This document shows, piece by piece, positions 21,907 to 58,031 of a stretch of DNA of 64,000 bases (position 1 is the stretch's first letter; every line of letters begins with the position of its first letter). The stretch comes from Coriobacteriia bacterium (GTDB taxonomy: Bacteria > Actinomycetota > Coriobacteriia > Anaerosomatales > PALSA-660): contig JAUSBS010000082.1 in the NCBI GenBank assembly GCA_030651905.1, positions 4,322 through 68,321 on the forward strand, given 5' to 3'. The translations under genes were made by a program, and so were the position numbers. Under the pieces are notes generated by a model, which saw only the letters and a list, made by a program, of their open reading frames with translations, was not told the origin of the DNA and made no database searches.

Positions 21907-21920
21907 TCGCGCCTCCTCCC

Positions 21921-22541: not shown

Positions 22542-22542
22542 G

Positions 22543-23193
22543 TCACATCGCCTCCTTCACCGAGGCGTGGGCCGCGGCCTGCTTGGCGGCCATTCGACGG
22601 TTCAGAGCCTGCGAGCCCGCGACGATCAGTCCGAACAGCATGAAGGCTCCGGGGAACAGGAGCAGGATGTTGGGCGGGCGATAGAAGGCGGGCAGCGTCA
22701 CGAGGGTCATCTTGAGGAAGACGATCTGCCCGCCGCCGAACAGTTCACGGAAGGCCGCGAGCGCCGTGATGATGATCGTGTAGCCGAGCCCCATGCCGAT
22801 ACCGTCGGCGACCGAGAGCCACACCCGGTTGTGGTACGCGAAGGCCTCGGCGCGCCCGAGCACGATGCAGTTGACCACGATCAGAGGGATCCACACGCCG
22901 AGGAACGAGTACACGCTGGGCAGATACGCCTTCATGACGAGATCCACGATCGTGACGAACGAGGCGATGATCACGATGAAGATCGGGATCCGTACCTCCT
23001 CGGGGATGAGGTGTCTGATGGCCGCGATGATCACGTTGCTCATCACGAGGACGAACATGACCGCGACCCCCATGAAGAACGATCCTTCTGCACGGCTCGA
23101 GACCGCGAGGACCGAGCACAGCCCGATCATGAGCACGGTCAAGGGGTTCTCGAACGACAGGCCGTTCTTGAGGACCTTCATCCATTGCTTCAC
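22543..23193 (-). CDS. rnfE: Rnf complex subunit E
   Basis: The sequence NPLTVLMIGLCSVLAVS...GVWIPLIVVNCIVLGRAEAFA is RnfE/NqrD-like. Confidence 0.9.
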   Translation of the reverse strand: MKQWMKVLKNGLSFENPLTVLMIGLCSVLAVSSRAEGSFFMGVAVMFVLVMSNVIIAAIRHLIPEEVRIPIFIVIIASFVTIVDLVMKAYLPSVYSFLGVWIPLIVVNCIVLGRAEAFAYHNRVWLSVADGIGMGLGYTIIITALAAFRELFGGGQIVFLKMTLVTLPAFYRPPNILLLFPGAFMLFGLIVAGSQALNRRMAAKQAAAHASVKEAM

Positions 23194-23795
23194 TGCCCGG
23201 CACCTCCTTCCATGCTCTTGAGCACGTCGGCATAGATCGCCGCTGCCGCTCCGACGCCGTTGCGAACGCCCCTCGACGTCTTGGTCGCCCCCATGATCGT
23301 ATCGACCTTGCGCACCGAGTCAGCGCCCGTCGCCGTGTCGAGTCCCACGAAGCGCGGAAGCCAGTCCACCTGGGTGAGGACCTTCGTTCCCAGACCCGGC
23401 GTCTCGTTCATGGAGATGATCGTAGCGCCCGTGACTTTCCCGTTCCTATCCACTCCTACCGCCATCGATATCGGGCCACCATAGCCGCGAGGCGCCACTA
23501 GAACGCCCCATCCGACCTGGGCACCGGAGCCGTCGAGCGCGCGATACAGGCCATCGACGCGGGTGTCGCCCGCAGCCGACGCCGCCTTCTCGTAGGCCGC
23601 GGCGTCCTTCTTCGCATCGATCTCCGCAAAGGTCGTCGCGTCCGCGAGTACGATGCGCAGCGATCTCGCCTTCGCCTCCCGGTCCTGGGCCGCGATGCGG
23701 TCCTTCGTGACGGCGTACGTGACGGCGAGTCCCGCCGCCGCGACGATACAGACCACGAGGACCGGTATCCCGAGCCGCATGTAGAGCTTAAGCAT
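23190..23795 (-). CDS. rnfG: Rnf complex subunit G (FMN-binding)
   Basis: It has an N-terminal TM and an FMN_bind domain with the flavinylation-type motif IMGATKTSRGV. Confidence 0.88.
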   Translation of the reverse strand: MLKLYMRLGIPVLVVCIVAAAGLAVTYAVTKDRIAAQDREAKARSLRIVLADATTFAEIDAKKDAAAYEKAASAAGDTRVDGLYRALDGSGAQVGWGVLVAPRGYGGPISMAVGVDRNGKVTGATIISMNETPGLGTKVLTQVDWLPRFVGLDTATGADSVRKVDTIMGATKTSRGVRNGVGAAAAIYADVLKSMEGGAGQ

Positions 23796-24834
23796 TCGCC
23801 TTCACCGCCTTCGCAGGCTTGATGTGCCCGAACGGCTTGGGCATGAACATGCGGTCGATGAGCGGCGCGAGCCCGTTCATGAACAGGATGGCGAACGTCG
23901 TGGTCTCGGGCATCGGTCCGAAGAAGCGCGTCACGATGTTGAACACACCGCAACCGATACCGAAGACGAGCCGGCCGTTCTTGGTTATGGGCGACGTGAC
24001 GTAGTCGGTGGCCATGAAGAACGCACCGAGGAGCACGCCGCCCGCGAGCACGTTGAAGATCGGATCGGAACCGAACGCCCACGAGAGCAAGGCGACCGAG
24101 CCGATGTAGCCGACAGGGATGCGCCAGTCGATGATGCCGCGCACGATGAGCACGAGGCCACCGAGGATGAGCAGCCCGGCCGAGACCTCACCGAGTGAGC
24201 CTTCCAGGTTCTTGAACAGAAGCGGTCCGAACTGCTTCGCAAGGTCGAACCCGTAGCCACCTTGTGCCGCGCGATCCGCGGTCGCGATCGCCAGACGGGT
24301 GGCGCCGTTGATCGCGTCGAGCTTGCCCGAGGCCGGCACGGACAGCGCGTTGAACCAGCCGCCGGCGTATGGCTTGACCTCGGACATGACGCCGAGCCAC
24401 GACATCATGACGACCGCGCGACCGACAAGCGCCGGGTTGAAGAGGTTGAAGCCCAGCCCGCCGAAGAGCATCTTGGCCAGGCCGATGGCCACGATGCCGC
24501 CGACCATGCATATCCACCAAGGGGTGCGCGGCGGCACGGACATCGCGAGGAGCATGCCGGTGACGATGGCCGAAAGGTCGCCGATCGTCTGCTTGCGCTT
24601 CATCATGGCGTTCCACGCGAACTCCGTGAGCACGCATGAGCCGATGCTGGCGACGAATGTGATGATCGCCGGGGTGCCCATGTTCCAGACCGCCCAGAGG
24701 GCCGCGGGAAGAAGCGCCGCGATGACCCATAGCATGATCTGCGGACAGGTCAGTGCCGCTGCGATGTGCGGAGCAGGTGCGACCACGCGCGTATGCACAG
24801 GGGCGGAGGCAGACTCTTGTGTGGCGTCGCTCAA
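23788..24834 (-). CDS. rnfD: Rnf complex subunit D
   Basis: This 348 aa polytopic NqrB/RnfD-family protein has the GAFFMATDYVTSP motif. Confidence 0.9.
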   Translation of the reverse strand: MSDATQESASAPVHTRVVAPAPHIAAALTCPQIMLWVIAALLPAALWAVWNMGTPAIITFVASIGSCVLTEFAWNAMMKRKQTIGDLSAIVTGMLLAMSVPPRTPWWICMVGGIVAIGLAKMLFGGLGFNLFNPALVGRAVVMMSWLGVMSEVKPYAGGWFNALSVPASGKLDAINGATRLAIATADRAAQGGYGFDLAKQFGPLLFKNLEGSLGEVSAGLLILGGLVLIVRGIIDWRIPVGYIGSVALLSWAFGSDPIFNVLAGGVLLGAFFMATDYVTSPITKNGRLVFGIGCGVFNIVTRFFGPMPETTTFAILFMNGLAPLIDRMFMPKPFGHIKPAKAVKANA

Positions 24835-24835
24835 C

Positions 24836-26140
24836 TCACTTCACCCCCTTCGCCATCAGGGCCGCCTTGCCGACCTTGATCAGCTGTACGAGCGGGCGGC
24901 GGGTCGGACAGACGTAGCTGCAGCAGCCACACTCGATGCAGTCGAGCGCATTGAAGCGCTCCACCCCGTTCCACATACGACGGTCGGCGTGGCTGGCGAT
25001 CGCGAACGGATGCAGGTTCATCGGGCAGGCCTCGACGCATCGGCCGCAGCGGATGCAGGCCTGGTCGCCATCGACGACAGGCGCGGACTCGTTCTCCGTG
25101 AGCGCGACAACGCCCGAGGTGCCCTTCACGACCGGCACGTCCAGCGACGCCAGCGCGGCACCGGTCATCGGTCCGCCCGCGATCACGCGGCCCGCGTCCG
25201 GTAGCAGACCGCCGGCCGCCTCGACCAGCGTCTCGATCGGCGTGCCGATCAGAGCGAGGAAGTTCGATGGATCGCCCACGGCACCCGCGATGGTCATGAC
25301 GCGCTCCATGAGCGGCTTTCGCAACTCGACAGCCTCGAGCACCGCGACGGCGGTCCCGACGTTGTGGACGAGCACGCCTATCGCCGCGGGGAGCTGACCG
25401 CGCGGAACGGCGCGGCCGGTGACAGCCCAGATCAGCTGCTTCTCCGCACCCTGCGGGTAGTGGGTCTTGAGTGCGACGACCTCGACCTCGGCGCCGTTGG
25501 TCGCCGCCCGGAGCGCCGCTATCGCGTCGGGCTTGTTGTCCTCGACGCCTATGAACACGGCCTTCGCACCGACCGCAGCGGCTATGAGGCCGACTCCGGC
25601 GATGACGTCGGCCGCGCGCTCGAGCATGACGCGATGGTCACACGTGAGATACGGCTCGCATTCGCACCCGTTGATGACGACCGTGTCGATCGTGAACTGC
25701 TTCGGCGGGCTGAGCTTGACCGCAGTCGGGAAGGCCGCGCCACCGAGGCCGACGATCCCGGCCGCACGCACGGTCGCGCGCACATCGTCGCGAGGCGCCT
25801 GGATCGGCACCCACGTGGTGAGGTCCTGCTCGGCATCGGGTGCGATGGTGACAGCCATCGCGCGGACGCCGCCCGGCGTGAGCACAGGCCCGACATCGGT
25901 GACCTCTCCGCTGACCGGACTGTGGACCGGCGCGCTGATGAGCGCCTCGACGTCGCCGACGACCTGGCCGCGGGCGACGCGATCACCCTTCGCGACCAAC
26001 GGAGTACATGGCGCACCGAGGTGCTGGCTCATTGGCAGCACGATGCGGTCGGGCACAGGCCCGGGACGCACGGCGCGCCCGGCCGTACCCTCCTTGCGAT
26101 CCGGTGGATGGGTCCCACCGGCGAACGGACGGATCCTCAC
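24836..26140 (-). CDS. rnfC: Rnf complex subunit C
   Basis: An RnfC barrel and NADH-binding (GLGGAAFPT) region is followed by two 4Fe-4S motifs, CIRCGRCVEACP and CIECGCCSYVCP. Confidence 0.92.
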   Translation of the reverse strand: MRIRPFAGGTHPPDRKEGTAGRAVRPGPVPDRIVLPMSQHLGAPCTPLVAKGDRVARGQVVGDVEALISAPVHSPVSGEVTDVGPVLTPGGVRAMAVTIAPDAEQDLTTWVPIQAPRDDVRATVRAAGIVGLGGAAFPTAVKLSPPKQFTIDTVVINGCECEPYLTCDHRVMLERAADVIAGVGLIAAAVGAKAVFIGVEDNKPDAIAALRAATNGAEVEVVALKTHYPQGAEKQLIWAVTGRAVPRGQLPAAIGVLVHNVGTAVAVLEAVELRKPLMERVMTIAGAVGDPSNFLALIGTPIETLVEAAGGLLPDAGRVIAGGPMTGAALASLDVPVVKGTSGVVALTENESAPVVDGDQACIRCGRCVEACPMNLHPFAIASHADRRMWNGVERFNALDCIECGCCSYVCPTRRPLVQLIKVGKAALMAKGVK

Positions 26141-26182
26141 TCCCTCACCCCTAACTCGTTCGTGCTCTCATCAACAGCGGCG

Positions 26183-26213
26183 GCGCTCACCGCGCAGTAT
26201 GCGCAGTGAGCGC
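26183..26213 (-). terminator. hairpin between the group-3b hydrogenase operon and rnfC
   Basis: On the minus strand the hairpin reads GCGCTCAC-t-GCGCA tac TGCGC-g-GTGAGCGC, a 13 bp stem with one mismatch. It lies 25 nt after the hydA stop. Confidence 0.5.
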
Positions 26214-26237
26214 CGAGTATGCACGACACGTTTCCCG

Positions 26238-27500
26238 CTAGTGCACCGCGCAGGACATGCACGGGTCGTACGCGCGAACGAGCTGCTCGATGAGCAGGAT
26301 GAACTCGTCGCGGGGACGGTCGGCGATCGTCGGAGCGAACGCGCGCATATCCGCGTCCAGGTTCGCCAGGTTCTGGGCTGTCGGCGTGATGACGTCGCCG
26401 CGCGTGATGAACCCGTCGTCATCGATCCCGTAGCCGTGGTACAGCGTCCCGCGAGGCGCCTCGGTCGCACCGGCGCCCTCGCCCGCTTGGATCTTGAACG
26501 GCACCGGCGCCGACGAGCCGCCCATCTCGAGCAGGCGTCCGATGTAGCCGGCGCAGCGCTCGGCGGCGTCGACGAGTTCGACGGCCTGTGCCAGATGCGT
26601 GTGGAACGGGTTGCGCGAGGGCATGGTGAGCCCGGCCTTTGCGAGAGCGTCCCGTCCCGCGGCGCTGAGCGAACCGGCGTTGATGTTGAGCCGCGGGAGC
26701 GCGCCCACGATGATCGGCATGCCCGCCACCATGGTGTGCTTCGCGTTGCTGTGCCCGACGATCGACTCGGTGATGACCTCGCGGTAGTCGGAGACCGGCC
26801 GCCTCCATCCGGCGTCGAGAGCGGCGATCTCGCCCTCGTAGATGGCGTAGTCGTCCGTCGAGGACAGCGCCAGCATCTCGCCGGCGGTGTCGAACGCGGG
26901 CACCTCGAAGGACGCGAACAACTCGACGGTCGAGACCGCGTCGGGCGCGATGTCGAGCAGCATCTCGCGGAACGCCTCGAGCTTGCGGGGATCGGGTTCG
27001 GCCGTGAAGCCGCCGATCACCGCGGTCACGGGGTGGACTGATCGTCCGCCCACGAGGTTGCACAGCTCGTTGCCGAGCTTCTTGATCTTGAGCGCGCGCG
27101 CGACGATGTCGGGGTGCGTGGCGGCCAGCGGGAAGACGCTCGGCAGCCCGACGAAGTCCGGCGCGGCGAACACGTACAAGTGCGTCGCGTGGTTCTGCAG
27201 GTACGAGCCGTACACGAGCAGTTTGCGCAGCAGCTTCGTGCGCTCCGAGACCTCCACGCCCAGCGCGGACTCGATCGCCTTGATCGAGGTGACCGCGTGG
27301 TTGGGCGAACAGATCCCGCAGATGCGGCTGGTGATGAGCGGCGCCTCGTCGAACCTGCGTCCGACCACCATGGACTCGAAGAAGCGGGCGGGCTCGACGA
27401 CGTCCATACGGATCGAGGAGACGACGCCGTTCTCGACAGAGACGGAGATGTTGCCGTGGCCCTCGATACGCGCCACGTGCTCGACAGTCAGGTCAGCCAT
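26238..27500 (-). CDS. hydA: group 3b [NiFe] hydrogenase large (alpha) subunit
   Basis: The N-terminal RICGICSPNH and the C-terminal DPCMSCAVH (ending at His) are present. At 420 aa it is group-3 sized, and the neighbouring genes define the 3b type. Confidence 0.9.
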   Translation of the reverse strand: MADLTVEHVARIEGHGNISVSVENGVVSSIRMDVVEPARFFESMVVGRRFDEAPLITSRICGICSPNHAVTSIKAIESALGVEVSERTKLLRKLLVYGSYLQNHATHLYVFAAPDFVGLPSVFPLAATHPDIVARALKIKKLGNELCNLVGGRSVHPVTAVIGGFTAEPDPRKLEAFREMLLDIAPDAVSTVELFASFEVPAFDTAGEMLALSSTDDYAIYEGEIAALDAGWRRPVSDYREVITESIVGHSNAKHTMVAGMPIIVGALPRLNINAGSLSAAGRDALAKAGLTMPSRNPFHTHLAQAVELVDAAERCAGYIGRLLEMGGSSAPVPFKIQAGEGAGATEAPRGTLYHGYGIDDDGFITRGDVITPTAQNLANLDADMRAFAPTIADRPRDEFILLIEQLVRAYDPCMSCAVH

Positions 27501-27501
27501 C

Positions 27502-28245
27502 TTACGCAGTCACCTCCGCGGCGGTGTTGTAGACGAGTAGCGACGACGCGAGTGATGCCGGGTCGCAGCCGTACCGGGCGAACACCTCACGAGCAGAGGC
27601 GAGATTGGCATCGGGCGCGATGCCGCGACAGCCGGTGCACGGGCGGCCGAGCGAGGGACACTTCGCTTTGCAGCCTGCGCGCGTCACGAGTCCGAGGCAC
27701 ACGGTCCCGACCTCGAGGAAGCAGGCGTTCTCCGAGACCTTGCACGACGCGCACATCATCTGGTCCGGCATGTGGTCGGACAGGCCCTGCAGGACGCGGG
27801 AGAGACCTCGAAGGAACTCCGCCGTGTCGATGGGGCAGCCCGGTACGTGGTAGTCCACGTCGATGATCGAGTCGATCGGCGCGGGCGCGATGCGGCCCGG
27901 AGCCACGGCCACGCCGCCTCCGTAGACCGTCGCGTAGCGCGTCTCGAGGCCGGCGGTGTTGGCCAGCGCCGGGATGCCACCGGTCACGGCGCAGGTGCCG
28001 ATCGCGACGACGGCGGCCGCCTTCGAGCGAACGTCCTTGAGAAGCTCGACGTGTTCGGTGGTGGTGACGGCGCCTTCGATGATGGCGACATCGTACGCGT
28101 CCGGCATGTGACCGCTGCTGGCGAGTTGCCAGTAGGTCAGATCCATCAACCCGAGGACGTCGAGCAGGTCGTCCTCCATGTTCGTGAGCTGCACCTGGCA
28201 CCCGAAATCGGAAGCGAGGGACACGACGACGACTCGCGGTGCCAT
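27502..28245 (-). CDS. hydD: group 3b hydrogenase small (delta) subunit
   Basis: It is an NuoB/20 kDa-like small subunit with SLASDFGCQVQL and HVPGCP, plus C-terminal extra Cys motifs. Confidence 0.88.
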   Translation of the reverse strand: MAPRVVVVSLASDFGCQVQLTNMEDDLLDVLGLMDLTYWQLASSGHMPDAYDVAIIEGAVTTTEHVELLKDVRSKAAAVVAIGTCAVTGGIPALANTAGLETRYATVYGGGVAVAPGRIAPAPIDSIIDVDYHVPGCPIDTAEFLRGLSRVLQGLSDHMPDQMMCASCKVSENACFLEVGTVCLGLVTRAGCKAKCPSLGRPCTGCRGIAPDANLASAREVFARYGCDPASLASSLLVYNTAAEVTA

Positions 28246-29124
28246 CTAGATCGCCTCCTGCAGGTTCATGGCTTCCCAGTAGTTGAAGACCGGGCCGTCC
28301 ACGCATGCGTACTGGTGGCCGACACCGCAGTGTCCGCACTTTCCGATCCCGCACTTCATGCGGCGCTCGAAACTCACGTAGATGCGATCGACGTCCATGG
28401 CCTTCTTGCGCATCTCCGCGATCACGTACTTGTACATGACGGGCGGGCCACAGATGGCTCCGTAGGTGTTCTCGGGGTCCACGTCGATCTTGTCGAACAG
28501 CCTTGTGACGAGGCCGACCTCGCCCTCCCACGTGTCGTCAGGCTGGTCGACGGTGAGCATCAGATCGAAGTCGTCACGGTGCTGCCACATGTCGAACTGG
28601 TAGCGGAACAACACCTCGTCGGGCTTCTTCGCGCCGTAGAGGATGGTCACCTTGCCGAAATCGTGGCGATCGTCATGGATGTGGTTGATGAGGCTCTTGA
28701 GCGGCGCGATGCCGAGGCCGCCAGCCACCAGGAGTACGTCGTGACCCTTCATCTCCTCGAACGGGAAGCCGCGGCCGAACGGGCCGCGAAGCCCGACGAT
28801 GTCGCCGCACTGCTTACGGTGGAGCGCACCGGTCACGTCGCCGGCGTTGCGCACGCACAGCTCGATGAAGCCCTGCTTCGACGGGGCGCTCGAGATCGAG
28901 ATGGGCGCCTCGCCCACACCGAACACCGATAGCTCGACGAACTGGCCGGCCGAGAAGTCGAAGGCTTCGCGAGCATCCGAATCGATGAGCCGCAGTTCGA
29001 AGAGCTTCTCCTGCGGTGTCAGGTCCATGATCGAGGTGATGCGCGCCGGCCAGGGACGGTACGGGTTCACGGTGCTCTCGGGAACGGCGCCGCTCACGTG
29101 AGTGCCTCGCATGATCGTGTCCAT
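28246..29124 (-). CDS. hydG: group 3b hydrogenase gamma subunit (FAD/NAD(P)-binding, 2Fe-2S)
   Basis: It has a ferredoxin-NADP-reductase-like fold (VLLVAGGLGIAP) and the C-terminal CGIGKCGHCGVGHQYACVDGP. Confidence 0.88.
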   Translation of the reverse strand: MDTIMRGTHVSGAVPESTVNPYRPWPARITSIMDLTPQEKLFELRLIDSDAREAFDFSAGQFVELSVFGVGEAPISISSAPSKQGFIELCVRNAGDVTGALHRKQCGDIVGLRGPFGRGFPFEEMKGHDVLLVAGGLGIAPLKSLINHIHDDRHDFGKVTILYGAKKPDEVLFRYQFDMWQHRDDFDLMLTVDQPDDTWEGEVGLVTRLFDKIDVDPENTYGAICGPPVMYKYVIAEMRKKAMDVDRIYVSFERRMKCGIGKCGHCGVGHQYACVDGPVFNYWEAMNLQEAI

Positions 29125-30147
29125 CTAGTCCACCACACCTGTCTGCAGCGCCTCGACGACCCGGACGGGGTTGATGTTCGCCTTGCATGCGCGTGCGCAG
29201 CGGCCGCAGCCGACGCACAGCACACGCTCGAACTTGCTCAGGTACCCCCACTGCTTGTGGTAGTAGCGGTATTTCACTCGGCTGGCGCGCGTGTCGCGGA
29301 AGTTCTGCCCGTGCGCGACGGCCGCGAACTCCTTGAACTGGCAGCTGTCCCAGGTGCGGACCCGTCGCCCGTGCTGCTGGTCCGCCTCGAGTTCGTCGTG
29401 CACGTCGAAGCAGTAGCAGGTCGGGCACACCATCGAGCAGGCGCCGCATGCCAGACACTTCTCGCCGAACGCCTCCCAGATCGGGCTGTCGAACTTCGCG
29501 TCGAGCAGCAGTGGGAGCTGGGAGGTGTCCACATCGTTGCTGAACGCGGCCTTGAACGCGGCGGTGCGCTCCTGGAAGAGGCGCGTGTCCTCGTCCGTGA
29601 TGTCGCGTGACTCGACATGGCGATCGACGAGCTCAGCGCCCTTCACCGAGCGGATCGAGGCGAAGTAGCTGTCCCCGATGTCGGAGAGGAAGATGTCGAA
29701 GCCCCAGTGTGTCTCGTCCGTGCCCCAGGCGTTGCAGAAGCAGGTGTCCGATGGCGTGCACGAGACGCCCACGATCAGCGTGTTCTCGCGGCGCGCCCTG
29801 TAGTACGGGTCCACGTACTTCCCGAAGAAGACGTTGTCCATGAGCAGCAGGCTGTTCACGTCACAGGGGTGCAGTCCGAACAACACCCTCGGCGGCGCGT
29901 AGACCTCATCGTCCACGACCTCGTTGTCGGCCACGCGGAAGCGCATGATCGTCTCTTCGGGGGGGAAGAACCACTTCTTCGGCGGCAGGACCGTCGTGTC
30001 GTAGTCGAGCCGCAACGAAGCCGGATCCTCGATGGGCGCGAGCACGAACTTCTCGCCCTTCGCAACGGGGCCGACCACCTCGAACTCGGTGGACAGCCCG
30101 CGGACCAGGTCCGGCAGCCGGTCCTTGGCTATGACTCGGAAGAACAA
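29125..30147 (-). CDS. hydB: group 3b hydrogenase beta subunit (4Fe-4S)
   Basis: Both CLACGACSMVCPTCYCFD and CVGCGRCARACKANINP are present. The gene order beta-gamma-delta-alpha matches Pyrococcus-type sulfhydrogenase. Confidence 0.88.
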   Translation of the reverse strand: MFFRVIAKDRLPDLVRGLSTEFEVVGPVAKGEKFVLAPIEDPASLRLDYDTTVLPPKKWFFPPEETIMRFRVADNEVVDDEVYAPPRVLFGLHPCDVNSLLLMDNVFFGKYVDPYYRARRENTLIVGVSCTPSDTCFCNAWGTDETHWGFDIFLSDIGDSYFASIRSVKGAELVDRHVESRDITDEDTRLFQERTAAFKAAFSNDVDTSQLPLLLDAKFDSPIWEAFGEKCLACGACSMVCPTCYCFDVHDELEADQQHGRRVRTWDSCQFKEFAAVAHGQNFRDTRASRVKYRYYHKQWGYLSKFERVLCVGCGRCARACKANINPVRVVEALQTGVVD

Positions 30148-45955: not shown

Positions 45956-46654
45956 CTATTCGGCCTCGAGACGCTCCCGAAGGCGGAAGAGATCGACGAC
46001 GATGCGGCGACCCTTCGTCGCAAGCACACCCTCGCGCACCAGGCTCGAGATGATGCGGCTCGCGGTCTCGCGCGACGTCCCGGCGAGCGTGGCGATCTCG
46101 TAGTGTGTCAGGCCGGCGATGACCGGAACGCCACGTGACTCGTACGCGGCGGTGGCCACGTTGAGAAGGACGCGCATCACGCGGTGCGTGGCGTCGTGGA
46201 ACGCCATGTCCTCCAGCCGGGAGATCGTGTGGCGCAGTCGGCGGGACAGCGTCGCGATGAGCGACAGAGCGAGACGCGGCTGCAGTTGGATCGCGGCGGA
46301 CAGGTCCTTCGCCTCCAGCACGAGCGCTTCCACATCGGTCACCGCGATGACGTCGGCGGAACGAGGCTCGGAATCCACAAGGCTCATCTCGCCGAAGTGC
46401 GCGGGAGCCTCAAGGTACGAGAGCGCGAGCTCCTTGCCGTCAGGCGACGCGAGCGAGACCTTCACCCGACCGGAGACGAGCAGGAACATGCAGCCGCCGC
46501 GTTCATGTTGGGTGACGATGAAGGCGCCCTTCGGCACCTGGCGGTACGTGACCATCCCCGCGAGCGTCTCGATTGCTTCCTCATCGAGGTCGGCGAAGAT
46601 CGGCAGTGTACGGAGCTTCGGTGCGATCAGGCCGCGTGCAGGTGTCATGTTCAT
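45956..46654 (-). CDS. Crp/Fnr-family transcriptional regulator
   Basis: A cNMP-binding domain (FGEMSLVD...RSADV) is followed by a C-terminal HTH (THYEIATLAGTSRETASRIIS). No N-terminal Cys cluster is present, so it is CRP-like rather than FNR-like. Confidence 0.88.
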   Translation of the reverse strand: MNMTPARGLIAPKLRTLPIFADLDEEAIETLAGMVTYRQVPKGAFIVTQHERGGCMFLLVSGRVKVSLASPDGKELALSYLEAPAHFGEMSLVDSEPRSADVIAVTDVEALVLEAKDLSAAIQLQPRLALSLIATLSRRLRHTISRLEDMAFHDATHRVMRVLLNVATAAYESRGVPVIAGLTHYEIATLAGTSRETASRIISSLVREGVLATKGRRIVVDLFRLRERLEAE

Positions 46655-46679
46655 GCCCCGTGTATCGGCAACGCCCTAT

Positions 46680-46695
46680 TGTGACTTGAGATACA
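46680..46695. promoter_or_regulatory. CRP-like half-conserved site TGTGA-CTTGAG-ATACA inside an 8-bp inverted repeat (CTATTGTG...CACAATAG)
   Basis: The site was read directly and lies 26 nt upstream of the crp-family start codon, in the divergent region shared with the HAD gene. Confidence 0.3.
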
Positions 46696-46832
46696 CCGTA
46701 CGTGATATCCGACACAATAGCCGTTGGATCACGGCGCGACGGACGGGCCTCAGCCACCGCATGGCGGTGCTACCATGTGCGGGTCCGGGATCGCCCCGGG
46801 CACGGAGACCGAAGCCTCGGAAGGACTCTCGC

Positions 46833-47555
46833 GTGCGCGCTGTTCTCTTCGACCTCGACGGCACGCTGCTCGACCTCGACCTCTCGCTGTTCCTGCGCAG
46901 GTACTTCGAGTCGCTCGGGGCCGTCGTGCAGCGCCACTTCCCCGACGGCGACGTCATGCGTGCGATCCTCGATGCGACCGAGGCGATGCAACGTCCGCAC
47001 CCTGGGAAGACGAATCGCGATGTCTTCTACGCCGACCTCCTCGCTCGGACCGGCATAGACCTGCAGGCGTCCTGGAGCGTGTTCGAAGCGTTCTATCGCG
47101 ACCGGTTCCCGGCGCTCGGGGACGGCTGCCGTCCGGGCAAGGGAGCCAGGCGTGCCGTGGAGACCGCCCTCGCGCTGGGGCTCGACGTCGTCATCGCCAC
47201 GCAGCCGATCTTCCCGAGGGTGGCGATCGAGCACCGACTCGCCTGGGCGGGCCTCTCCGACCTAGGACTGGAGCGGCTGACCACGTACGAGATCATGCAC
47301 GCGTGCAAACCGCTTCCGGACTACTTCCGCGAGGCTGCAGTTCTGGCAGGGCACGAGCCGGCGGAGTGCCTCATGGTCGGGGACGACCGCATGCTCGACA
47401 TGCCTGCGGCCGACGTCGGCATGCGCACCTTCTACGTCGGATCGGACAGCGGCACCCACGCGGACTGGTGCGGCGACCTCGACCGGCTCGCCGACCTCTT
47501 GCCGCACCTGGCGGCGGAGCCCCGTCGAGACGTCGGGGCGGTCGACTCCCGCTAG
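46833..47555 (+). CDS. HAD-family hydrolase
   Basis: The GTG start at 46833 follows GGAAGGA. Motif I is VLFDLDGTLLD, and the late motif GDDRMLDM is present. Confidence 0.85.
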   Translation: MRAVLFDLDGTLLDLDLSLFLRRYFESLGAVVQRHFPDGDVMRAILDATEAMQRPHPGKTNRDVFYADLLARTGIDLQASWSVFEAFYRDRFPALGDGCRPGKGARRAVETALALGLDVVIATQPIFPRVAIEHRLAWAGLSDLGLERLTTYEIMHACKPLPDYFREAAVLAGHEPAECLMVGDDRMLDMPAADVGMRTFYVGSDSGTHADWCGDLDRLADLLPHLAAEPRRDVGAVDSR

Positions 47556-47812
47556 GTCATGCGCCTGCGGATGAGCGCGACCCACGCGCCGTCGAGGCGC
47601 TGGTCGTAGAAGAACTCGAACTGGCCCTTGGTCTCCTTGCGCAGCTCGAGCTGGTAGCCGAGACCCGCGGGCTCGTGGTCGCAGATGACCACAAGGCTGT
47701 CGGAGCAGTCGATATCGAGCATCTTGTCCACGACCGTGAAGACGATGGGGCGGCGCAGCGCGGGGGTCAGGCCGCGGATATCGATGACGAGACCTGTTGA
47801 AGGACCGGACAT
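47552..47812 (-). CDS. DUF2249-domain protein (86 aa)
   Basis: The sequence MSGPSTGLVIDIRGLTPALRRPIVFTVVDKM...LVVICDHEP is a TusA-like DUF2249 pattern. The rest of the 235-aa track ORF is not coding-like. Confidence 0.7.
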   Translation of the reverse strand: MSGPSTGLVIDIRGLTPALRRPIVFTVVDKMLDIDCSDSLVVICDHEPAGLGYQLELRKETKGQFEFFYDQRLDGAWVALIRRRMT

Positions 47813-48503
47813 ACCTCGGCGCACCCCCTCTCCCGAACCGAGACCGTACTCATCCGCACCGGCAGCGTGGACGATCGGCCTTCTGGCGCGACGTGATCGA
47901 CTCGTCGCGATCCGACACATAACGCTTACCACTTGTTCGTCGCCGAGAACCATAGTCCTGCCGCGAGGCGCGCGCGTCCACCGCGCATCGGTCGCATGGC
48001 GACACCGACCGCGTCGACGCACCGCCATACGGTGGAGCTCGTGCTCCGTTGGGTATTGTCTGTGCAGCGTCGAAGCCGCAGACTGGTGAGCGTGTTTACT
48101 GGCGGCTCCGGATTGCATAAGGAATGCGGGGGAACGTGCGCCATCAGGACTGTCGTCGCGAGGGGCATGACCGGCGCGACGGCGCGAAGCGGGCCACCAC
48201 CGTTCGTCACATCGTGACGGCCGGTCCTTGAACGACCTCGCGGGCAGGTCTGCCCGCACAGCGCGCCATCCCGGCGCGAATCCCTGTCGTCGAGTCTCGG
48301 CACATGCCGTCCCTCCGCCACCAACCGGCGCGAGCGGGCGGCGTTCTCATGCCGTGGCACTAGAGGTCTACACGTTTCGTAGGGAGGTGCGAAAGGAGGA
48401 GGCCGGACTATGTTGGGGAGGCCCCCCGCCTCGGAACAGGCGGCAGGGGTCGGGATGCATGTGACATGTGTCTTTCCTGTAAGCACGCAAGGAGGTGTAT
48501 GGG

Positions 48504-49643
48504 ATGGCGCAAGAAATGCGAGAAGGGATCTACGATCTCCTCGCAGCGCGGGGCGTTTCGCGCCGTGATTTCCTGAAGTACTGCGGTTCTGTCGCAGCGA
48601 TGCTCGGACTCTCCGAGATGGCTGCACCGCAGATCGCTGCGGCCGTCGAGGGTGGAGCCAAGCTCCAGCCGGCCGTGTGGCTCGATCTGGGCCTGTGCAC
48701 GGGATGCACGGAGTCGACCGCGCAGGCCGGCAACCCCAACGTTGCCGACATCGTGCTCGACCTGCTCTCCATCAACTACATGGAGACGATCATGGCCGCC
48801 GCCGGCGACCAGGCCGAAGAGGCCAAGGCCAAGACGATAGAAGAGGGCGGCTACATCCTCATCGTCGAGGGCACCGTCATGACGGGCGAAGGCGGCAACA
48901 CACTGCGCATCGCCGGCAAGACGGGCATGGAAGTCCTGAAGGAGGCCGCCTCCAAGGCGGCAGCCATCGTGGCTGTCGGTTCCTGCGCTGTTGACGGCGG
49001 CTGGGTGCGGGCCAACCCGAACCCCGCCGGCGGCAAGGGCGTCAAGGACGTCGCTGTGGAGCTCGGTTTCGACAAGGTGCCGATCATCAACCTGCCGACC
49101 TGCCCGGTGAACCCGGAGTGGATCGTCGCAGTGGTGATCGACGTCCTGATGCTCGGCGCGCTCGAGAACCTCGCGGTGCTCAACCTGGACGAGCTTGGCC
49201 GACCGAAGCTGATCTTCGGCCAGACGATCCACGATAACTGCCCGCGTCGCGGTCACTTCGAGAACGGCGAGTTCGTCAAGCAGTTCGGCACGGTCGAGGA
49301 AGTCAAGCAGTTCTGCCTCTACGAGGTCGGCTGCAAAGGCCCCCAGACGTTCACGAACTGCCCGAAGGTCCGCTGGAACCGCAAGGCCTCCTGGTGTGTC
49401 GAGTCCGGAGCGCCCTGCATCGGTTGCGGCAATCTCAACTGGGTCGACAACGACGCTCCGTTCCTCAAGAGGATGCCGAACGTCGGCGGCGTGCGTCCCG
49501 AGACGATCGGGACGGTGCTCGGCGGTGCCGCAGCGGCCGGTCTCCTCGTCCACGGCGTCGCATCGTTCTCCTCCGGCCGCGCCAAGGGCGCTCCGGTCGA
49601 GACGTCGAAGGCCTACGACAAGAAGAAGGGAGGCGATAAGTAG
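48504..49643 (+). CDS. group 1 [NiFe(Se)] hydrogenase small subunit, Tat-exported, C-terminal TM anchor
   Basis: The start is set at the ATG 9 nt after AAGGAGG. The Tat motif SRRDFLKYCG and the proximal cluster motif CTGCTES are present. The medial-cluster region reads NCPKVRWNRKASWCVESGAPCIGC. The C-terminal helix is TVLGGAAAAGLLVHGVASF. Confidence 0.92.
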   Translation: MAQEMREGIYDLLAARGVSRRDFLKYCGSVAAMLGLSEMAAPQIAAAVEGGAKLQPAVWLDLGLCTGCTESTAQAGNPNVADIVLDLLSINYMETIMAAAGDQAEEAKAKTIEEGGYILIVEGTVMTGEGGNTLRIAGKTGMEVLKEAASKAAAIVAVGSCAVDGGWVRANPNPAGGKGVKDVAVELGFDKVPIINLPTCPVNPEWIVAVVIDVLMLGALENLAVLNLDELGRPKLIFGQTIHDNCPRRGHFENGEFVKQFGTVEEVKQFCLYEVGCKGPQTFTNCPKVRWNRKASWCVESGAPCIGCGNLNWVDNDAPFLKRMPNVGGVRPETIGTVLGGAAAAGLLVHGVASFSSGRAKGAPVETSKAYDKKKGGDK

Positions 49644-51280
49644 TGGCCAGGGCAGTCATCGATCCCGTAACCAGAATCGAAGGACATCTCCGCGTCGAGG
49701 TTGAGGTTGAAGGCGGCGTCGTCAAGGACGCCTGGGTCAGCGGTACGCTGTACCGCGGCATGGAGACCGTCCTCGAGGGCCGTGCCCCCGCCGACGCCTT
49801 CTATGTCTCGCAGCGCATCTGCGGCGTGTGCCCGATCTCACACGGTCACGCCTCCACGATGGCAAGCGAAGCCGCGCTCGGGATCCAGATCCCGGACGGC
49901 GCGCGCCTCGTTCGCAACATCATCGAGGGTGCTGAGACCCTGCACAGCCACATCCTGTGGTTCTACACCCTGACGGCACTCGACTACGTCGACGTCGTCT
50001 CCGCGCTGTCCGCGAACATCGCTGACACGTACGCGTTGGCCGAGAAGGCCGGCACGTCGACCGCGGACTTCGGCCAGGTCCAGAAGCGCATCAAGACGTT
50101 CGTCGAGGGCGGTCAGCTCTCCATCTTCACGAACGGCTACTGGGGCCACCCGGCCATGAAGCTCCCGGCCGAGCTCAACCTGATCGCTGTCGCCCACTAC
50201 CTTGAGGCACTCGAGATGCAGGCCGAGGCCGCGCAGATCATCGCTCTCATGGGCGGCAAGTTCCCCCACTTCATGACCTCTCTCCCCGGCGGCACCGCAT
50301 GGATGCCCACAGAGGAGAAGCTCGGCGGGATCCTCTTCCGCTGGAAGCGCGTCCGCGACTGGGTCGCGAACACCTTCATCCCCGACACGCTGGCGATCGC
50401 CCCCTTCTACATCGAGGCGGCCACCTACGGTAAGGGTTGCGGGAACTTCCTGTCCTGGGGCTGCTTCGACGACGCCAGCTTCGATCCCAAGAAGCGCGCG
50501 CTGCCTCGCGGCATGATCGTAGGCGGCAAGCTCGAGGTCCTCGAGCCGGATGTCGCTCAGGTCAAGGAGTACGTGGAGCACGCATGGTACGACTCCCCCA
50601 GCGCGCTGAACCCGGCGCAGGGAAAGACCCACGCGAAGTTCACGTCATACGACACGAACGACAGGTACTCGTGGGTCAAGGCGCCTCGTCTCAACGAGCT
50701 GCCCATGGAGGTCGGACCTCTGTCCCGCATGCTCGTCGCCTATCTGGACGGCGTGCCGCAGGTCAAGAGCCTCATCGACACCACGCTGGCGGCGCTCGGC
50801 GTCGCAGGCAAGCCCGAGATCCTCGTGTCCCTGCTCGGTCGCATCGCGGCCCGCAACCTCGAGACGCTGTACGTGGCCGACGAGATGGGCAAGTGGATCG
50901 GCGAACTGGTCGCGGCCGTCAAGGGCGGCGAGGCGAAGTTCTTCACTGAGTCCACCGCCACCGATGGTGAGGGTGCTGGACTCTGGGAGGCCCCGCGCGG
51001 TGCGCTCGGCCACTTCATCTCCGTGAAGGGCGGCAAGATCGCGAACTACCAGGCGGTCACTCCGTCCACATGGGACCTGTCGCCGCGTGACGCCGCAGGC
51101 GTTCGCGGTCCGATGGAAGAGGCACTCATCGGCGCTCCGATCGCGGACGTCGAGAAGCCTCTCGAGGCCCTGCGTATCGTCCACTCCTTCGATCCTTGAG
51201 TGGGTTGCGGGGTTCAGGTCATTGAACCCAAGACCGGCAAGTCGTCGTTCGTGATGTCGAAGCCCACGATGGGCAGGTGA
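49643..51280 (+). CDS. group 1 [NiFeSe] hydrogenase large subunit; UGA at 51197-51199 read as selenocysteine
   Basis: The N-terminal RICGVCPISH motif is present. The track ORF stops at ...RIVHSFDP-TGA. The same frame continues VGCGVQVIEPKTGKSSFVMSKPTMGR-TGA (51278-51280), which gives DP-U-VG-C. A SECIS-like hairpin follows, and the second stop overlaps the GTG of the cytochrome b gene. Confidence 0.75.
51210..51229 (+). other. putative bacterial SECIS hairpin
   Basis: GGGTTCA-GGTCAT-TGAACCC forms a 7 bp stem with a 6-nt loop containing GGUC. It starts 10 nt after the UGA. Confidence 0.55.
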
Positions 51281-51945
51281 GTGCAATGTCGCACGAGGGA
51301 CACTATCGTGAGGCGCACCCGCTGATCTTCGTGTTCCAGCACTGGGTCAATCTCATCTGCATGGCGGGGCTCGCGTTCTCGGGCTTCGTCATCCACGGCT
51401 CGTTCTACGCCATCTCCATGGGCGGAGCTCGGATGATCCACTTCACGCTGATGTTCGTGCTCGCTGTGAACATCACGAGCCGCATCATCCTGTCCTTCTG
51501 GGTCAAGGATGCCAACCAGCTCGGCACGCGCGAGGTAGACACCGACATCAAGAACTGGCTGCCGCAGAAGGAGAACAAGCACCAGCTGCTCGAGACCGCG
51601 AAGTACTACCTGTTCATGCGGAAAGAGCGAGTCATCTCGGCCAAGTACGGTGCCCTGCAGAAGATCGCGTACCTTGCCACCGTGCCCATCACGTTCTTCA
51701 TGGGCTACACCGGCTTCGCGCTCTACGGCCCTGCTCAGCAGTGGCCGGTGTGGGGCTTCTTCGCCGGAGGCATCAGCCTCGTCGGCGGCATCATGACCAT
51801 GAGGATCATCCACTACTTCGGTATGTGGGTCGTCATCCTGTTCACCATGGTGCATGCGTACCTGGCTGCGATCGACGGCTTCAAGGCGTTCTACGGCCTC
51901 ATCTTCCTGTGGCGTGAGTCGCCCGGGGCCGAGGAAGGTCACTAG
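51277..51945 (+). CDS. Ni/Fe-hydrogenase b-type cytochrome subunit
   Basis: This four-TM cytochrome b has His residues in helices (FQHWVNL, RMIHFTLMFV, MRIIHYFGMW, TMVHAYL). ATG 51286 is an alternative start. Confidence 0.85.
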   Translation: MSAMSHEGHYREAHPLIFVFQHWVNLICMAGLAFSGFVIHGSFYAISMGGARMIHFTLMFVLAVNITSRIILSFWVKDANQLGTREVDTDIKNWLPQKENKHQLLETAKYYLFMRKERVISAKYGALQKIAYLATVPITFFMGYTGFALYGPAQQWPVWGFFAGGISLVGGIMTMRIIHYFGMWVVILFTMVHAYLAAIDGFKAFYGLIFLWRESPGAEEGH

Positions 51946-52152: not shown

Positions 52153-53475
52153 ATGATCGCTGAACGCGCGCTGACCGCCGTCATGCGTCGTCTGAGTCGT
52201 CGCTATATCGCCCACGAGCCGACCGATATGGACATGCTCCCTGGACCGGCACACTCGAAGCGCTACCTCCTGTACGCCCATGTCCCCTTCTGCGAGCGGC
52301 TCTGCACGTACTGCTCGTTCAACCGCTTCCTCTATCGCGAGGACCTCGCCCGCAGCTACTTCCTGAGCCTGCGCGAAGAGATGCGGATGGTCGCGTCGCT
52401 CGGCTACGACTTCGGGGCACTCTACGTGGGTGGCGGCACGCCCACGATCCTTCTCGACGAACTGACCCAGACCATCGACCTCGCCAACGAACTGTTCGAC
52501 ATCGGCGAGGTGTCGGCCGAGACGAGCCCCAACCACCTGACACCGGAGGTCGTCGAGCGGCTGGGCGGCCGCGTCCAGCGCATGTCCGTCGGCGTCCAGA
52601 GCTTCGACGACCGGCTGCTTCGCGTCATGGACCGCTACGAGAAGTACGGCAACGGCCAGTCGCTCTTCGAGGCGATCGCCGGCGCGCAGGGGATGTTCCC
52701 GTCGCTCAACGTCGACATGATCTTCAACTTCCCGAGCCAGACCGAGCGCATGCTGCTCGCCGACATCGACCTGCTCAAGCAGACCGGCTGCAACCAGACG
52801 ACGTTCTACCCCCTCATGGCGGGCCCGAACGCGGCCCGCGCGCTTGCCGACACGGTCGGCCGCATCGATTTCACACGCGAGGGAGAGTACTACGGCATCA
52901 TCGACGAGGCGCTCTCCGATGCCTTCGAACCCGCCTCCGCGTGGACCTTCTCCAAGGAGAAGGGCGGCATGATCGACGAGTACATCGTGGACTACGACGA
53001 GTACATCGGGATCGGATCAGGAGCACTGTCCTTCGTCGGCGGTCGCGTCTACGGGAACACGTTCTCGCTCCAGGAGTACAGTGAAGCCATCCTCTCCGGT
53101 CGGATGGGCCTCGCGACGGCAGGACAGCCCTACGAACGCCGCGCGCTCATGCGCTACCGCTTCGTCACCGACCTCTTCGGCCTGCGAATGGACAAGCGGA
53201 AGTTCGAGCGGGACTTCGGCGAACCGGTCGAGCGGGCGCTGCGCATCGAGACCGCGTTCATGCGCGCAGCCGGCGGCTTCGACCGCGACGACGACACCGA
53301 GTTCACGCTGACTCAGACCGGTCGCTACCTGCTCGTGGTCATGATGCGCGAGATGCTGTCGGGGTCGAACGAGCTTCGCGACGAGGCTCGCGCCGCGCTG
53401 TCACCCGAGGAGCGCATGCTGCTCCTTGACGGTATCGACGCGTCCGAACCCGCCGCCGCTCCGGTGGTCGCGTAG
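52153..53475 (+). CDS. HemN/HemW-like radical SAM protein (coproporphyrinogen III oxidase family)
   Basis: The radical SAM site is HVPFCERLCTYCSF. GGGTPT and a C-terminal HemN_C-like region are also present. Confidence 0.82.
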   Translation: MIAERALTAVMRRLSRRYIAHEPTDMDMLPGPAHSKRYLLYAHVPFCERLCTYCSFNRFLYREDLARSYFLSLREEMRMVASLGYDFGALYVGGGTPTILLDELTQTIDLANELFDIGEVSAETSPNHLTPEVVERLGGRVQRMSVGVQSFDDRLLRVMDRYEKYGNGQSLFEAIAGAQGMFPSLNVDMIFNFPSQTERMLLADIDLLKQTGCNQTTFYPLMAGPNAARALADTVGRIDFTREGEYYGIIDEALSDAFEPASAWTFSKEKGGMIDEYIVDYDEYIGIGSGALSFVGGRVYGNTFSLQEYSEAILSGRMGLATAGQPYERRALMRYRFVTDLFGLRMDKRKFERDFGEPVERALRIETAFMRAAGGFDRDDDTEFTLTQTGRYLLVVMMREMLSGSNELRDEARAALSPEERMLLLDGIDASEPAAAPVVA

Positions 53476-53563: not shown

Positions 53564-54118
53564 ATGGCGACCGAACGCATCACCGTGATGGGGATCGGCA
53601 ACCCGCTCATGCGCGACGAGGGGATCGGCGTCCGGGTCGTCGAGGTGCTCATGACTACACTCGAGTTCCCCGCCAACGTCACGCTCGTCGATGCGGGAAC
53701 GATGGGCATGACCATCCTCAATCTGTTCCAAGACTGCGACTACATGCTCGTCGTGGACGCGATCGACGGCACCGGAGAAGCGCCCGGCACCGTCGTTCGG
53801 CTCTCGCCGGAGGACCTCTCACCGAATCAGGTCATGCACTCCCTGCACGACGTGCGACTCGTCGACGTGCTACAGACCGCCATGCTGATGGGGCTCGAGC
53901 CCCTCGTGGACTGCATCGGGGTCCAGATCGAGGACATGAACGAGCTGTCCATCGGCCTGACTCCCGCACTCGAGGCCGCCGTGCCGGACGCCGTGGCCGC
54001 GGTGCTCACGGTGCTGGCCGAACGCGGTATCACTCCGACGCCGCGTGACGAGGCGGACGCGGGGCCCGACGCTCAGGTCCTTCGCGCGATCCGCACCAAG
54101 AGCGAAGGTCCGCGCTAG
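53564..54118 (+). CDS. hydrogenase maturation endopeptidase (HyaD/HybD family)
   Basis: The start is at MATERITVMGIGNPLMRDEGIG after GGAGG. LVVDAID and the HSLH region are present. Confidence 0.88.
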   Translation: MATERITVMGIGNPLMRDEGIGVRVVEVLMTTLEFPANVTLVDAGTMGMTILNLFQDCDYMLVVDAIDGTGEAPGTVVRLSPEDLSPNQVMHSLHDVRLVDVLQTAMLMGLEPLVDCIGVQIEDMNELSIGLTPALEAAVPDAVAAVLTVLAERGITPTPRDEADAGPDAQVLRAIRTKSEGPR

Positions 54119-56990: not shown

Positions 56991-58031
56991 CTAGAGGACC
57001 GAGCGAACGGCCGTCTCAATGGCCTCGATCAGAAGCGGATCATCGTTGGCCACGGGTGCTCTGGCGAACTCGATTCCCTGGCTGAGAGCCCTGTCCGCAG
57101 CCAGGATGTCGAGCGTCCACATCGTCTCGACCTCATCGAAGGCGAGACCTATCGGCAGCACGCAAACGGCCGAGAACCCATGAGAGATTGCCGCGTCGAT
57201 TACGGCGAACAGGTCGGGACCGACAGCGTCGGGGACCGGCTCCTCGCTCTGGTACGCCAGCAGCCACGGAGCGGTCTTGCCGAGACCGCCGAGCGCGCGG
57301 ACACCCAGCGCCGACTCGAGCCCGACCGCGTCGACTTCACCCAGCTCAAGCTCTTCAACCATCCGCACCACGGCGCTCTCGACGCGACGCACGTAGTCGC
57401 TCTCCTCGGCCTCGACGGCAGAGAGTGCCTCGGCAGTGAAGACGATCACTGGCTTGTGATCCGCCGCGAGTTCGCTGATGGTTCCGCTGTAGGCCAGTGA
57501 CAGCAGCTGAGTCAGGTGCTCGGAATGAGCGAAGTCGCCCCCGGGCACCGTCTCGATCCCGAGCGCCTTAGCCACCTGATTCACGGCCTCGCTGTTCGAG
57601 GCTGCGCGGAAGGGCGTCTCGAACGGGGCGAGATCCACGACGATCACCCGCCCCACGCCGTCGGCCTTGAACGCCTCCAGTGCGTCGACAATCGTCGGGC
57701 GAGCAGCGAGCATGCCGACCAGCACTCGAATGTCCACGGCGTCAGCAGTGCGTCCCGAGGGTGTCTCCACGAGGGCTGTGAGAGTATCCGACGGGCTCAC
57801 TTCGACTGGGTCGGGCGGAAGGTCGTTGAGTCGACGCTCCAATGCAGCGGCGACCCTCTCGGCGACGGCGGGTACCGGCGATATCCCCCCGATCGCCAGG
57901 TATCTGCGCTGGACAGCACCGAGCTCATCGGACGACGCCAGCGCCCCGTTCGCGATCTCAAGGAAGTCCGCGACCTCCCCGATGCCAGCAGGGCCGCCCG
58001 TTGTCACGATCAGAACCCCTGTGCGAGCCAT
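56991..58031 (-). CDS. ferrochelatase-fold protein with substituted catalytic residues
   Basis: It is collinear with my recollection of B. subtilis HemH/CpfC (YLAIGGISPVPAVAERV resembles YEAIGGISPLAQITEQQ). However, SAHSLP reads TAEALS and ADHLEV reads FDEVET. Confidence 0.65.
   Translation of the reverse strand: MARTGVLIVTTGGPAGIGEVADFLEIANGALASSDELGAVQRRYLAIGGISPVPAVAERVAAALERRLNDLPPDPVEVSPSDTLTALVETPSGRTADAVDIRVLVGMLAARPTIVDALEAFKADGVGRVIVVDLAPFETPFRAASNSEAVNQVAKALGIETVPGGDFAHSEHLTQLLSLAYSGTISELAADHKPVIVFTAEALSAVEAEESDYVRRVESAVVRMVEELELGEVDAVGLESALGVRALGGLGKTAPWLLAYQSEEPVPDAVGPDLFAVIDAAISHGFSAVCVLPIGLAFDEVETMWTLDILAADRALSQGIEFARAPVANDDPLLIEAIETAVRSVL

Follow-up and report, generated by a model that had tools for sequence, protein, structure and literature searches.

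A probable selenocysteine codon at the terminal nickel ligand of a membrane-bound uptake hydrogenase from Coriobacteriia

A 64,000-nt stretch of DNA from a Coriobacteriia bacterium (contig JAUSBS010000082.1; G+C content 67.1%), hereafter referred to as the window, carries a hydrogenase operon whose large-subunit gene contains an in-frame UGA codon where homologous enzymes have the Cys that serves as the terminal nickel ligand. Here we describe this gene, the evidence that the UGA is very probably decoded as selenocysteine (Sec), and the distribution of the same arrangement among related loci. All coordinates are those of the window, and L-numbers (e.g., L009 and L165) designate the related loci. 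The large-subunit gene has the following features.

49643–51280, + strand: hydrogenase large subunit, full recoded open reading frame (ORF) of 545 codons including one UGA (putative Sec519); matches solved group 1 enzymes with E values to 1e-142.
49814–49831, + strand: RICGVC, the N-terminal motif with two of the four active-site ligands; aligns with RTCGVC of 1H2A_L.
49946–49948, + strand: Ser102, aligned with the 'canopy' Asp (Asp123 in Desulfovibrio vulgaris Miyazaki, DvMF; D118 in Escherichia coli Hyd-1).
51197–51199, + strand: UGA, putative selenocysteine U519 and terminal nickel ligand, at the first Cys of DPCxxC by alignment with 1H2A_L; TGA in 24/24 clade genes.
51206–51208, + strand: Cys522, the second (bridging) ligand of the C-terminal motif by translation and alignment; encoded only when the UGA is read through.
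51215–51217, + strand: Gln525 (CAG), where nearly all homologues have the His of the mature end; the third base is the first base of the hairpin loop described below.
51218–51277, + strand: 20-residue C-terminal extension VIEPKTGKSSFVMSKPTMGR, predicted to be removed by a protease; conserved and open in 20/20 relatives.

As called, the large-subunit ORF spans 49643–51199, with the C-terminus ...ALRIVHSFDP followed by TGA at 51197–51199. Beyond this codon the same frame reads VGCGVQVIEPKTGKSSFVMSKPTMGR, and the next TGA lies at 51278–51280, so that the frame stays open for 26 further codons, to 51280, and encodes a second, indispensable Cys. The truncated ORF, the in-frame TGA at the nickel-ligand Cys and the read-through to the second TGA, all of which had been proposed in a first-pass annotation, were confirmed in the sequence. 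The hydrogenase domain PF00374 (Pfam) is covered end to end (1–507 of 508) only when the TGA is read through. In the alignment with 1H2A_L, the large subunit of D. vulgaris Miyazaki, the TGA faces the first Cys of SFDPCIACGVH, and the other three active-site ligands, contributed by RICGVC and Cys522, are all present. The C-terminal motif is DPUxxCxxQ, with Gln at the usual His position. This departs from the motif-end His (DPCxxCxxH) expected initially; Gln525 is common to the window and its five closest relatives (L165, L163, L124, L162 and L161), and the remaining members of the clade have His. Gln also occupies the position of the mature-end His in two Cys-type enzymes of Bryobacterales (L047 and L055).

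To place this codon in a comparative context, 160 related loci were taken from genome and metagenome collections, and more were added by exact protein look-up. All close relatives among the 160 loci (67–86% identity) have TGA at the corresponding codon, followed by an open and conserved tail. The nearest Cys-type relative is 61% identical, and this relative and all more distant ones have TGC or TGT, a pattern seen in the nearest Cys-type enzymes as well as in over 130 distant ones. Codon 519 is TGA in 24/24 clade genes for which DNA was available (67–97% identity), including two tandem paralogues on one contig; the open tail and a 7-bp hairpin downstream of the codon are likewise found in 24/24. 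The tail always terminates at the start of the cytochrome b gene, which is the next gene of the operon. Its frame is open in 20/20 sequences, while the other two frames contain stop codons in 19/20, and the ratio of nonsynonymous to synonymous polymorphism (pN/pS) is 0.51 in the tail vs 0.40 in the 60 codons upstream (20 sequences). Judged by this comparison, the downstream frame is translated and under purifying selection. A pseudogene and an assembly error are excluded because both the codon and the selected tail are conserved. The orthologues thus retain TGA rather than TGC, and neither decay of the downstream frame nor a misread TGC or TGT, two of the outcomes that the first-pass annotation had regarded as fatal to its proposal, agrees with the comparative data. 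In the databases, 118 of the 120 best clusters stop exactly at ...FDP, one is Cys-type and one is apparently frameshifted; U is annotated in 0/120.

A further feature lies immediately downstream of the UGA and resembles a selenocysteine insertion sequence (SECIS).

51200–51238, + strand: SECIS-like element; upper stem 51210–51216/51223–51229, loop 51217–51222 (GGUCAU), weaker lower stem 51202–51206/51232–51236.

The hairpin, GGGTTCA/GGTCAT/TGAACCC at 51210–51229, begins 10 nt past the UGA and carries GGUC in its loop, exactly as had been described from the single sequence; the comparison adds that it is conserved, with compensatory changes. The 44-nt element folds with −20.7 kcal/mol (z = −4.1), and 0/200 shuffled sequences folded as well. 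The 7-bp stem is 98.1% paired in an alignment of 22 Sec-type sequences, and two of its pairs show compensatory G-C to C-G changes, of which slid controls show none. One of these changes consists of a Gly-to-Ala substitution coupled with a synonymous CCC-to-CCG change. RNAalifold independently gives the same helix. The lower stem was also considered as part of the element and was dropped, being only 78% paired.

Codon usage gives a second view of the same helix. The stem forms only because GTT is used for Val, ATT for Ile and GAA for Glu, codons that are rare in the window (3.9% of Val, 0.6% of Ile and 13.6% of Glu codons, respectively), and the joint probability of the stem codons given the peptide is about 2e-6. 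These three codons are invariant clade-wide, while third positions outside the stem are free to vary. The loop has GU near its 5′ side in every Sec-type sequence, and in most clade members it reads CGUGAU. Five Cys-type loci of the sister clade encode nearly the same peptide, with stems of at most 5 bp and no such hairpin. The CAC-to-CAG change that gives Gln525 (51215–51217) hits the first base of the SECIS loop, so that protein and RNA constraints meet at one codon. Like the SECIS of E. coli fdhF, the element is a stem-loop directly 3′ of the UGA within the coding sequence, and its apical loop contains GU, starting with GGUC as in fdhF. The spacer of the minimal fdhF element is 11 nt, compared with 10 nt in the window. 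We propose that the hairpin may recruit the Sec-specific elongation factor (SelB).

We consider it very probable that 49643–51280 is the gene for the large subunit of an H2-uptake hydrogenase that is bound to the membrane and faces the periplasm, and that the terminal nickel ligand of this enzyme is Sec, specified by the UGA at 51197–51199. From the sequences we infer actual Sec insertion and, likewise, the cleavage site, the cluster types and the electron acceptor. In the proposed mechanism, the stem-loop 10 nt past the UGA would recruit SelB together with Sec-tRNA, so that the UGA would be decoded without termination, and translation would run on through Cys522 and the 20-residue extension. 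After insertion of nickel and iron, the HybD/HycI-type protease of the operon would remove the extension by cutting after Gln525; this removal is predicted from the known maturation of [NiFe] hydrogenases and from the HycI-family gene located downstream. The large subunit would then be exported together with the small subunit, which bears a twin-arginine translocation (Tat) signal and is predicted to hold three [4Fe-4S] clusters. Electrons from H2 would flow along the Fe-S clusters to cytochrome b, which would pass them to the quinone pool in support of anaerobic respiration.

Several observations weigh against this interpretation. ARAGORN detected no tRNA-Sec in the window and 19 related loci, and tblastn searches with E. 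coli SelA, SelB and SelD over the window plus 1.58 Mb of related loci matched only the GTPase domain of EF-G, with no selA, selB or selD found. Nor did Pfam reveal selenium-related genes among the approximately 45 ORFs of the window. The covariance search for a SECIS that the first-pass annotation had suggested was negative: no Rfam SECIS family matched at E ≤10 in 51100–51400, and none reached the gathering score window-wide. Unlike the fdhF element, the stem is a perfect helix of 7–8 bp without a bulged U. The fold of a 71-nt context is unremarkable (z = −1.29), and information on the hairpin comes solely from the focused element and from the comparison of loci. The covariation consists of two compensatory changes only, each of which may perhaps reflect a single event. 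In addition, stems of at least 7 bp occur at the same place in 22/131 distant Cys-type genes (approximately 17%), because the peptide G-V-H-V-L-D-A, when written in GC-rich codons, is self-complementary; the hairpin alone would not be decisive. Finally, the Gln in place of the usual C-terminal His means that processing may differ from that of known enzymes.

The hairpins of the distant Cys-type loci form an observation in their own right. Helices of 7–8 bp, e.g., GCGUCCA-CGUGC-UGGACGC, follow the Cys codon in L041, L056, L059, L073, L129, L134, L136, L150 and others, and these loci belong to Gemmatimonadota where labelled. Such a hairpin may be no more than coincidence, or it may act as a pre-adaptation by making it easier for Sec to evolve at this site.

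Four other explanations of the UGA were weighed. According to the first, the codon is read through without selenium, e.g., as Cys or Trp through near-cognate decoding, or the canonical Sec pathway has been lost or altered in this lineage. The failure to see Sec genes in the window and related loci speaks for this possibility, and it would likewise account for the conservation of the tail. However, it leaves unexplained why TGA is used over TGC in 120/120 members of an old clade, and why a structured element composed of disfavoured codons is kept 10 nt downstream. Moreover, Trp could not ligate nickel, and Sec use is frequent in this class, with selB and tRNA-Sec present in most Eggerthellaceae (PMC13462651). 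We regard this explanation as unlikely.

According to the second explanation, the TGA is a genuine stop, and the gene is either a pseudogene or encodes a truncated protein of 518 residues with an untranslated sequence downstream. Every gene caller and database entry treats the codon in this way, and the lack of Sec-machinery genes among the window and related loci is again in its favour. Yet the truncated protein would be without two of the four active-site ligands, and TGA is followed by an open tail of 25–31 codons in 24/24 genes, down to 58% identity, under purifying selection and with the other frames closed. That this tail always terminates at the cytochrome b start, and that the remaining operon is intact, including a dedicated C-terminal protease, also speak against a stop, and we consider a genuine stop very unlikely. 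A variant in which translation would re-initiate at the GTG right after the TGA was rejected, as relatives carry ATC, CTC, CTG or ATT there.

The two remaining explanations can be dismissed briefly. Genome-wide reassignment of UGA to Trp, known in the same class from some Eggerthellaceae (PMC13462651), is refuted by the stop-codon usage of the window, where TGA is the normal stop in 20/47 genes and a single in-frame TGA stands against 187 TGG codons; the G+C content is 67% here vs 31–40% in the recoded clade (PMC13462651), the position is that of a conserved Cys rather than a Trp, and the probability left to this reading is negligible. That TGC or TGT was misread through an error of sequencing or assembly, for which one base difference would be enough, is just as remote a possibility, given that the identical codon occurs in 23 independent assemblies from different projects and technologies. 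A second selenoprotein gene was also sought in the window; the sole other pair of ORFs in the same frame (883–2661, − strand) is split by TAA and consists of an LCP-like gene followed by RsfS.

With Sec as the favoured reading of codon 519, the class of the enzyme was examined. Its best solved relatives are Cys-type group 1b enzymes (approximately 480 bits), followed by Hyd-2 (419) and Hyd-1 (390), while the [NiFeSe] structures from Desulfovibrio and Desulfomicrobium score only approximately 350 bits against the large subunit. The HysA model NF045518 gives 439 bits vs a cut-off of 780, and the model of the NiFeSe small subunit, NF045520, gives 232 bits vs 470; the top NCBIfam model, NF033181, is sub-threshold too (537 bits vs 600). 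HysA/HysB form a soluble periplasmic dimer, whereas the window operon continues directly with a cytochrome b gene and encodes a small subunit with a hydrophobic C-terminal segment. Judged by these models and structures, the enzyme is not of the HysA type. Hence, of the initial proposal that it has the DPU-VG-C arrangement of the Desulfovibrio and Desulfomicrobium enzymes, Sec at DPUxxC was upheld and the assignment to their type was not.

A neighbour-joining tree of 215 large subunits, with bootstrap on a subsample, placed all 120 Sec-type sequences in one clade (bootstrap 83/100), in which identity goes down to 58%. This clade is sister to 83 Cys-type enzymes of Coriobacteriia (including those of Eggerthellaceae, Raoultibacter and a metagenome-assembled genome of Anaerosomatales), and parsimony requires a single Cys-to-Sec change. 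Because the single Sec clade is sister to Cys-type enzymes of Coriobacteriia, its Sec looks to be of separate origin from the known cases in groups 1a, 3a and 3c, the only groups for which HydDB notes Sec variants. By its position in the tree, the Cys-type sister group probably corresponds to HydDB group 1i ('Coriobacteria-type'), in which the enzymes of Anaerosomatales isolates have been classified, and the gene cluster described for Anaerosomatales, with small and large subunits, cytochrome b and maturation protease, matches that of the window (PMC9686372). Four loci from metagenome-assembled genomes recorded as 'uncultured Eubacteriales' (L004, L005, L007 and L008) carry a Sec operon of the Coriobacteriia type with a locus G+C content of 63–68%; either this taxonomic label is doubtful or the operon may have been transferred.

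Two traits regarded as characteristic of [NiFeSe] enzymes, the Asp-to-Ser change at the canopy and a Cys in place of Pro at the medial cluster (PMC8020662), are both present. The canopy position is Ser in 120/120 Sec-type and 83/83 Cys-type Coriobacteriia enzymes, and Asp in 10/12 outgroups. The small subunit reads WCVESG where 1H2A_S has WPVDAG, placing Cys at the medial-cluster Pro position; this Cys occurs in 18/18 Sec-type loci and also in L009, the sole sister-clade locus checked, while 106/109 Cys-type loci have Pro. Since Ser is found in all 83 Cys-type sisters and the medial Cys in L009, the comparison indicates that both are traits of the lineage and not consequences of Sec. With Cys at the medial cluster, the small subunit would be expected to form an all-[4Fe-4S] relay. 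At the thresholds used, no residues separated the Sec-type enzymes from their Cys-type sisters.

Three known systems are instructive for comparison. HysAB of D. vulgaris Hildenborough and Desulfomicrobium baculatum (HydDB 1a; PDB 2WPN and 1CC1) shares with the window enzyme Sec at the same terminal nickel-ligand position (DPUxxC), a small-subunit Cys that predicts a medial [4Fe-4S] cluster, Ser for the canopy Asp, and the organization as a Tat-exported heterodimer with a dedicated C-terminal protease. It differs in having a soluble cytochrome c3 as its partner, in contrast to the cytochrome b subunit and small-subunit membrane anchor found here; the window enzyme is also actinobacterial, has Gln for the C-terminal His and is distant in sequence. 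The group 1i enzymes of Eggerthellaceae and Anaerosomatales isolates have the same gene set, canopy Ser and bacterial class, and the medial Cys (L009), but they use Cys (TGC/TGT) and have no downstream hairpin, and the Sec clade is separate and monophyletic. The engineered E. coli Hyd-1 C576U (PMC8020662) has Sec at the equivalent position of a membrane-bound, cytochrome-b-linked uptake hydrogenase. That variant is artificial, however, and is built on an O2-tolerant group 1d scaffold with a [3Fe-4S] medial cluster, whereas the window enzyme is natural and comes with accompanying second-sphere and cluster traits.

The other genes of the operon are as follows.

48495–49643, + strand: hydrogenase small subunit, with Tat signal SRRDFLK and a hydrophobic C-terminal anchor; PF01058 and PF14720; TIGR00391, 313 bits, above the cut-off.
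51286–51945, + strand: b-type cytochrome membrane subunit; PF01292; TIGR02125, 93 bits, below the cut-off of 121.5; alternative start GTG 51277.
52153–53475, + strand: HemN-family radical SAM protein, inside the operon; PF04055; NF006385, 499 bits vs a cut-off of 355; kept in L162, L163, L167 and L173.
53564–54118, + strand: hydrogenase maturation endopeptidase (HyaD/HybD/HycI family); PF01750; TIGR00072, 128.7 bits, above the cut-off.

The order of small subunit, large subunit and cytochrome b is common to the relatives. The small subunit probably starts at ATG 48504 rather than at the listed GTG 48495, because the AGGAGG ribosome-binding site overlaps the latter. The cytochrome b gene more likely begins at ATG 51286 than at GTG 51277: the former yields MSHEGHY as in relatives, and AGGTGA lies 7 nt upstream. 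With this start, read-through leaves a 5-nt gap and therefore no GTGA overlap. The translational coupling suggested in the first-pass annotation was accordingly retained in part, in that read-through closes a gap of approximately 80 nt whichever start is used, and abandoned as regards the overlap.

At L173 (8860–17336), two tandem hydrogenase units lie on one contig, with TGA and the hairpin in both large subunits. L161 (15707–16831) and L163 (4162–5304) have only an orphan second small-subunit gene, located ahead of the protease gene. The radical SAM HemN gene lies between cytochrome b and the protease, and in relatives (flanks of L166 and L167) ferrochelatase, UroD and an amine-oxidase-type (HemY-like) gene are found downstream (cf. 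window 56991–58031). This arrangement suggests that haem supply or insertion may be linked to the cytochrome b subunit.

Further upstream in the window are a DUF2249 gene, a HAD hydrolase and a CRP-family regulator, and further downstream are transketolase, inositol monophosphatase, ferrochelatase and acetyl-CoA synthetase genes. The upstream order of a CRP/FNR-type regulator, HAD hydrolase and DUF2249 (window 45956–47812) is conserved ahead of the Sec-type operon in L161, L162, L166, L167 and L173, and in relatives the upstream set includes a small cytochrome-b5-like gene; the Cys-type Anaerosomatales locus L168 does not have this arrangement. Elsewhere in the window (20992–30147, − strand), a four-gene group 3b (sulfhydrogenase-like) hydrogenase adjoins a complete RnfCDGEAB cluster. 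Its large subunit terminates exactly at ...AYDPCMSCAVH, consistent with the earlier remark that it ends in DPCMSCAVH and uses an ordinary Cys.

[NiFeSe] hydrogenases are highly active, reactivate fast after exposure to O2 and have been used in semi-artificial photosynthesis. They have been described as restricted to a small subgroup of enzymes from sulfate reducers and methanogens (PMC8020662). Judged from its genes and those of its relatives, the enzyme described here is probably a new Sec variant within the membrane-bound uptake hydrogenases of Coriobacteriia. We found no description of a Sec-type hydrogenase from Coriobacteriia or OPB41 in the literature, our coverage of which was incomplete, and such genes may have been tallied in selenoproteome surveys without being remarked on. 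On balance, it seems probable that these genes represent a large, monophyletic and unrecognised clade of natural membrane-bound, cytochrome-b-linked [NiFeSe] hydrogenases in Coriobacteriia (OPB41/Anaerosomatales-like, from peat, groundwater and the subsurface), which descends from a Cys-type ancestor of group 1i, separately from the enzymes of sulfate reducers and methanogens, and has been systematically mis-annotated as truncated [NiFe] enzymes. The clade would then provide the first selenium hydrogenase with a respiratory, presumably quinone-reducing role.

The Coriobacteriia lineage would thus offer a natural Sec enzyme in a new setting, membrane-bound, cytochrome-b-linked and actinobacterial, one that could be set beside the engineered Hyd-1 C576U. 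Since the Sec enzymes and the Cys enzymes of the sister clade have the same second-sphere residues and Fe-S relay, a clean comparison of the two would help to isolate the contribution of selenium itself. With at least 118 database clusters recorded as truncated proteins, the Sec variant would be widespread in public data and uniformly mis-annotated. Metabolic reconstructions of Coriobacteriia that grow on H2 in the subsurface and in peat may therefore miss a need for selenium and give a wrong picture of the main uptake hydrogenase of these organisms.

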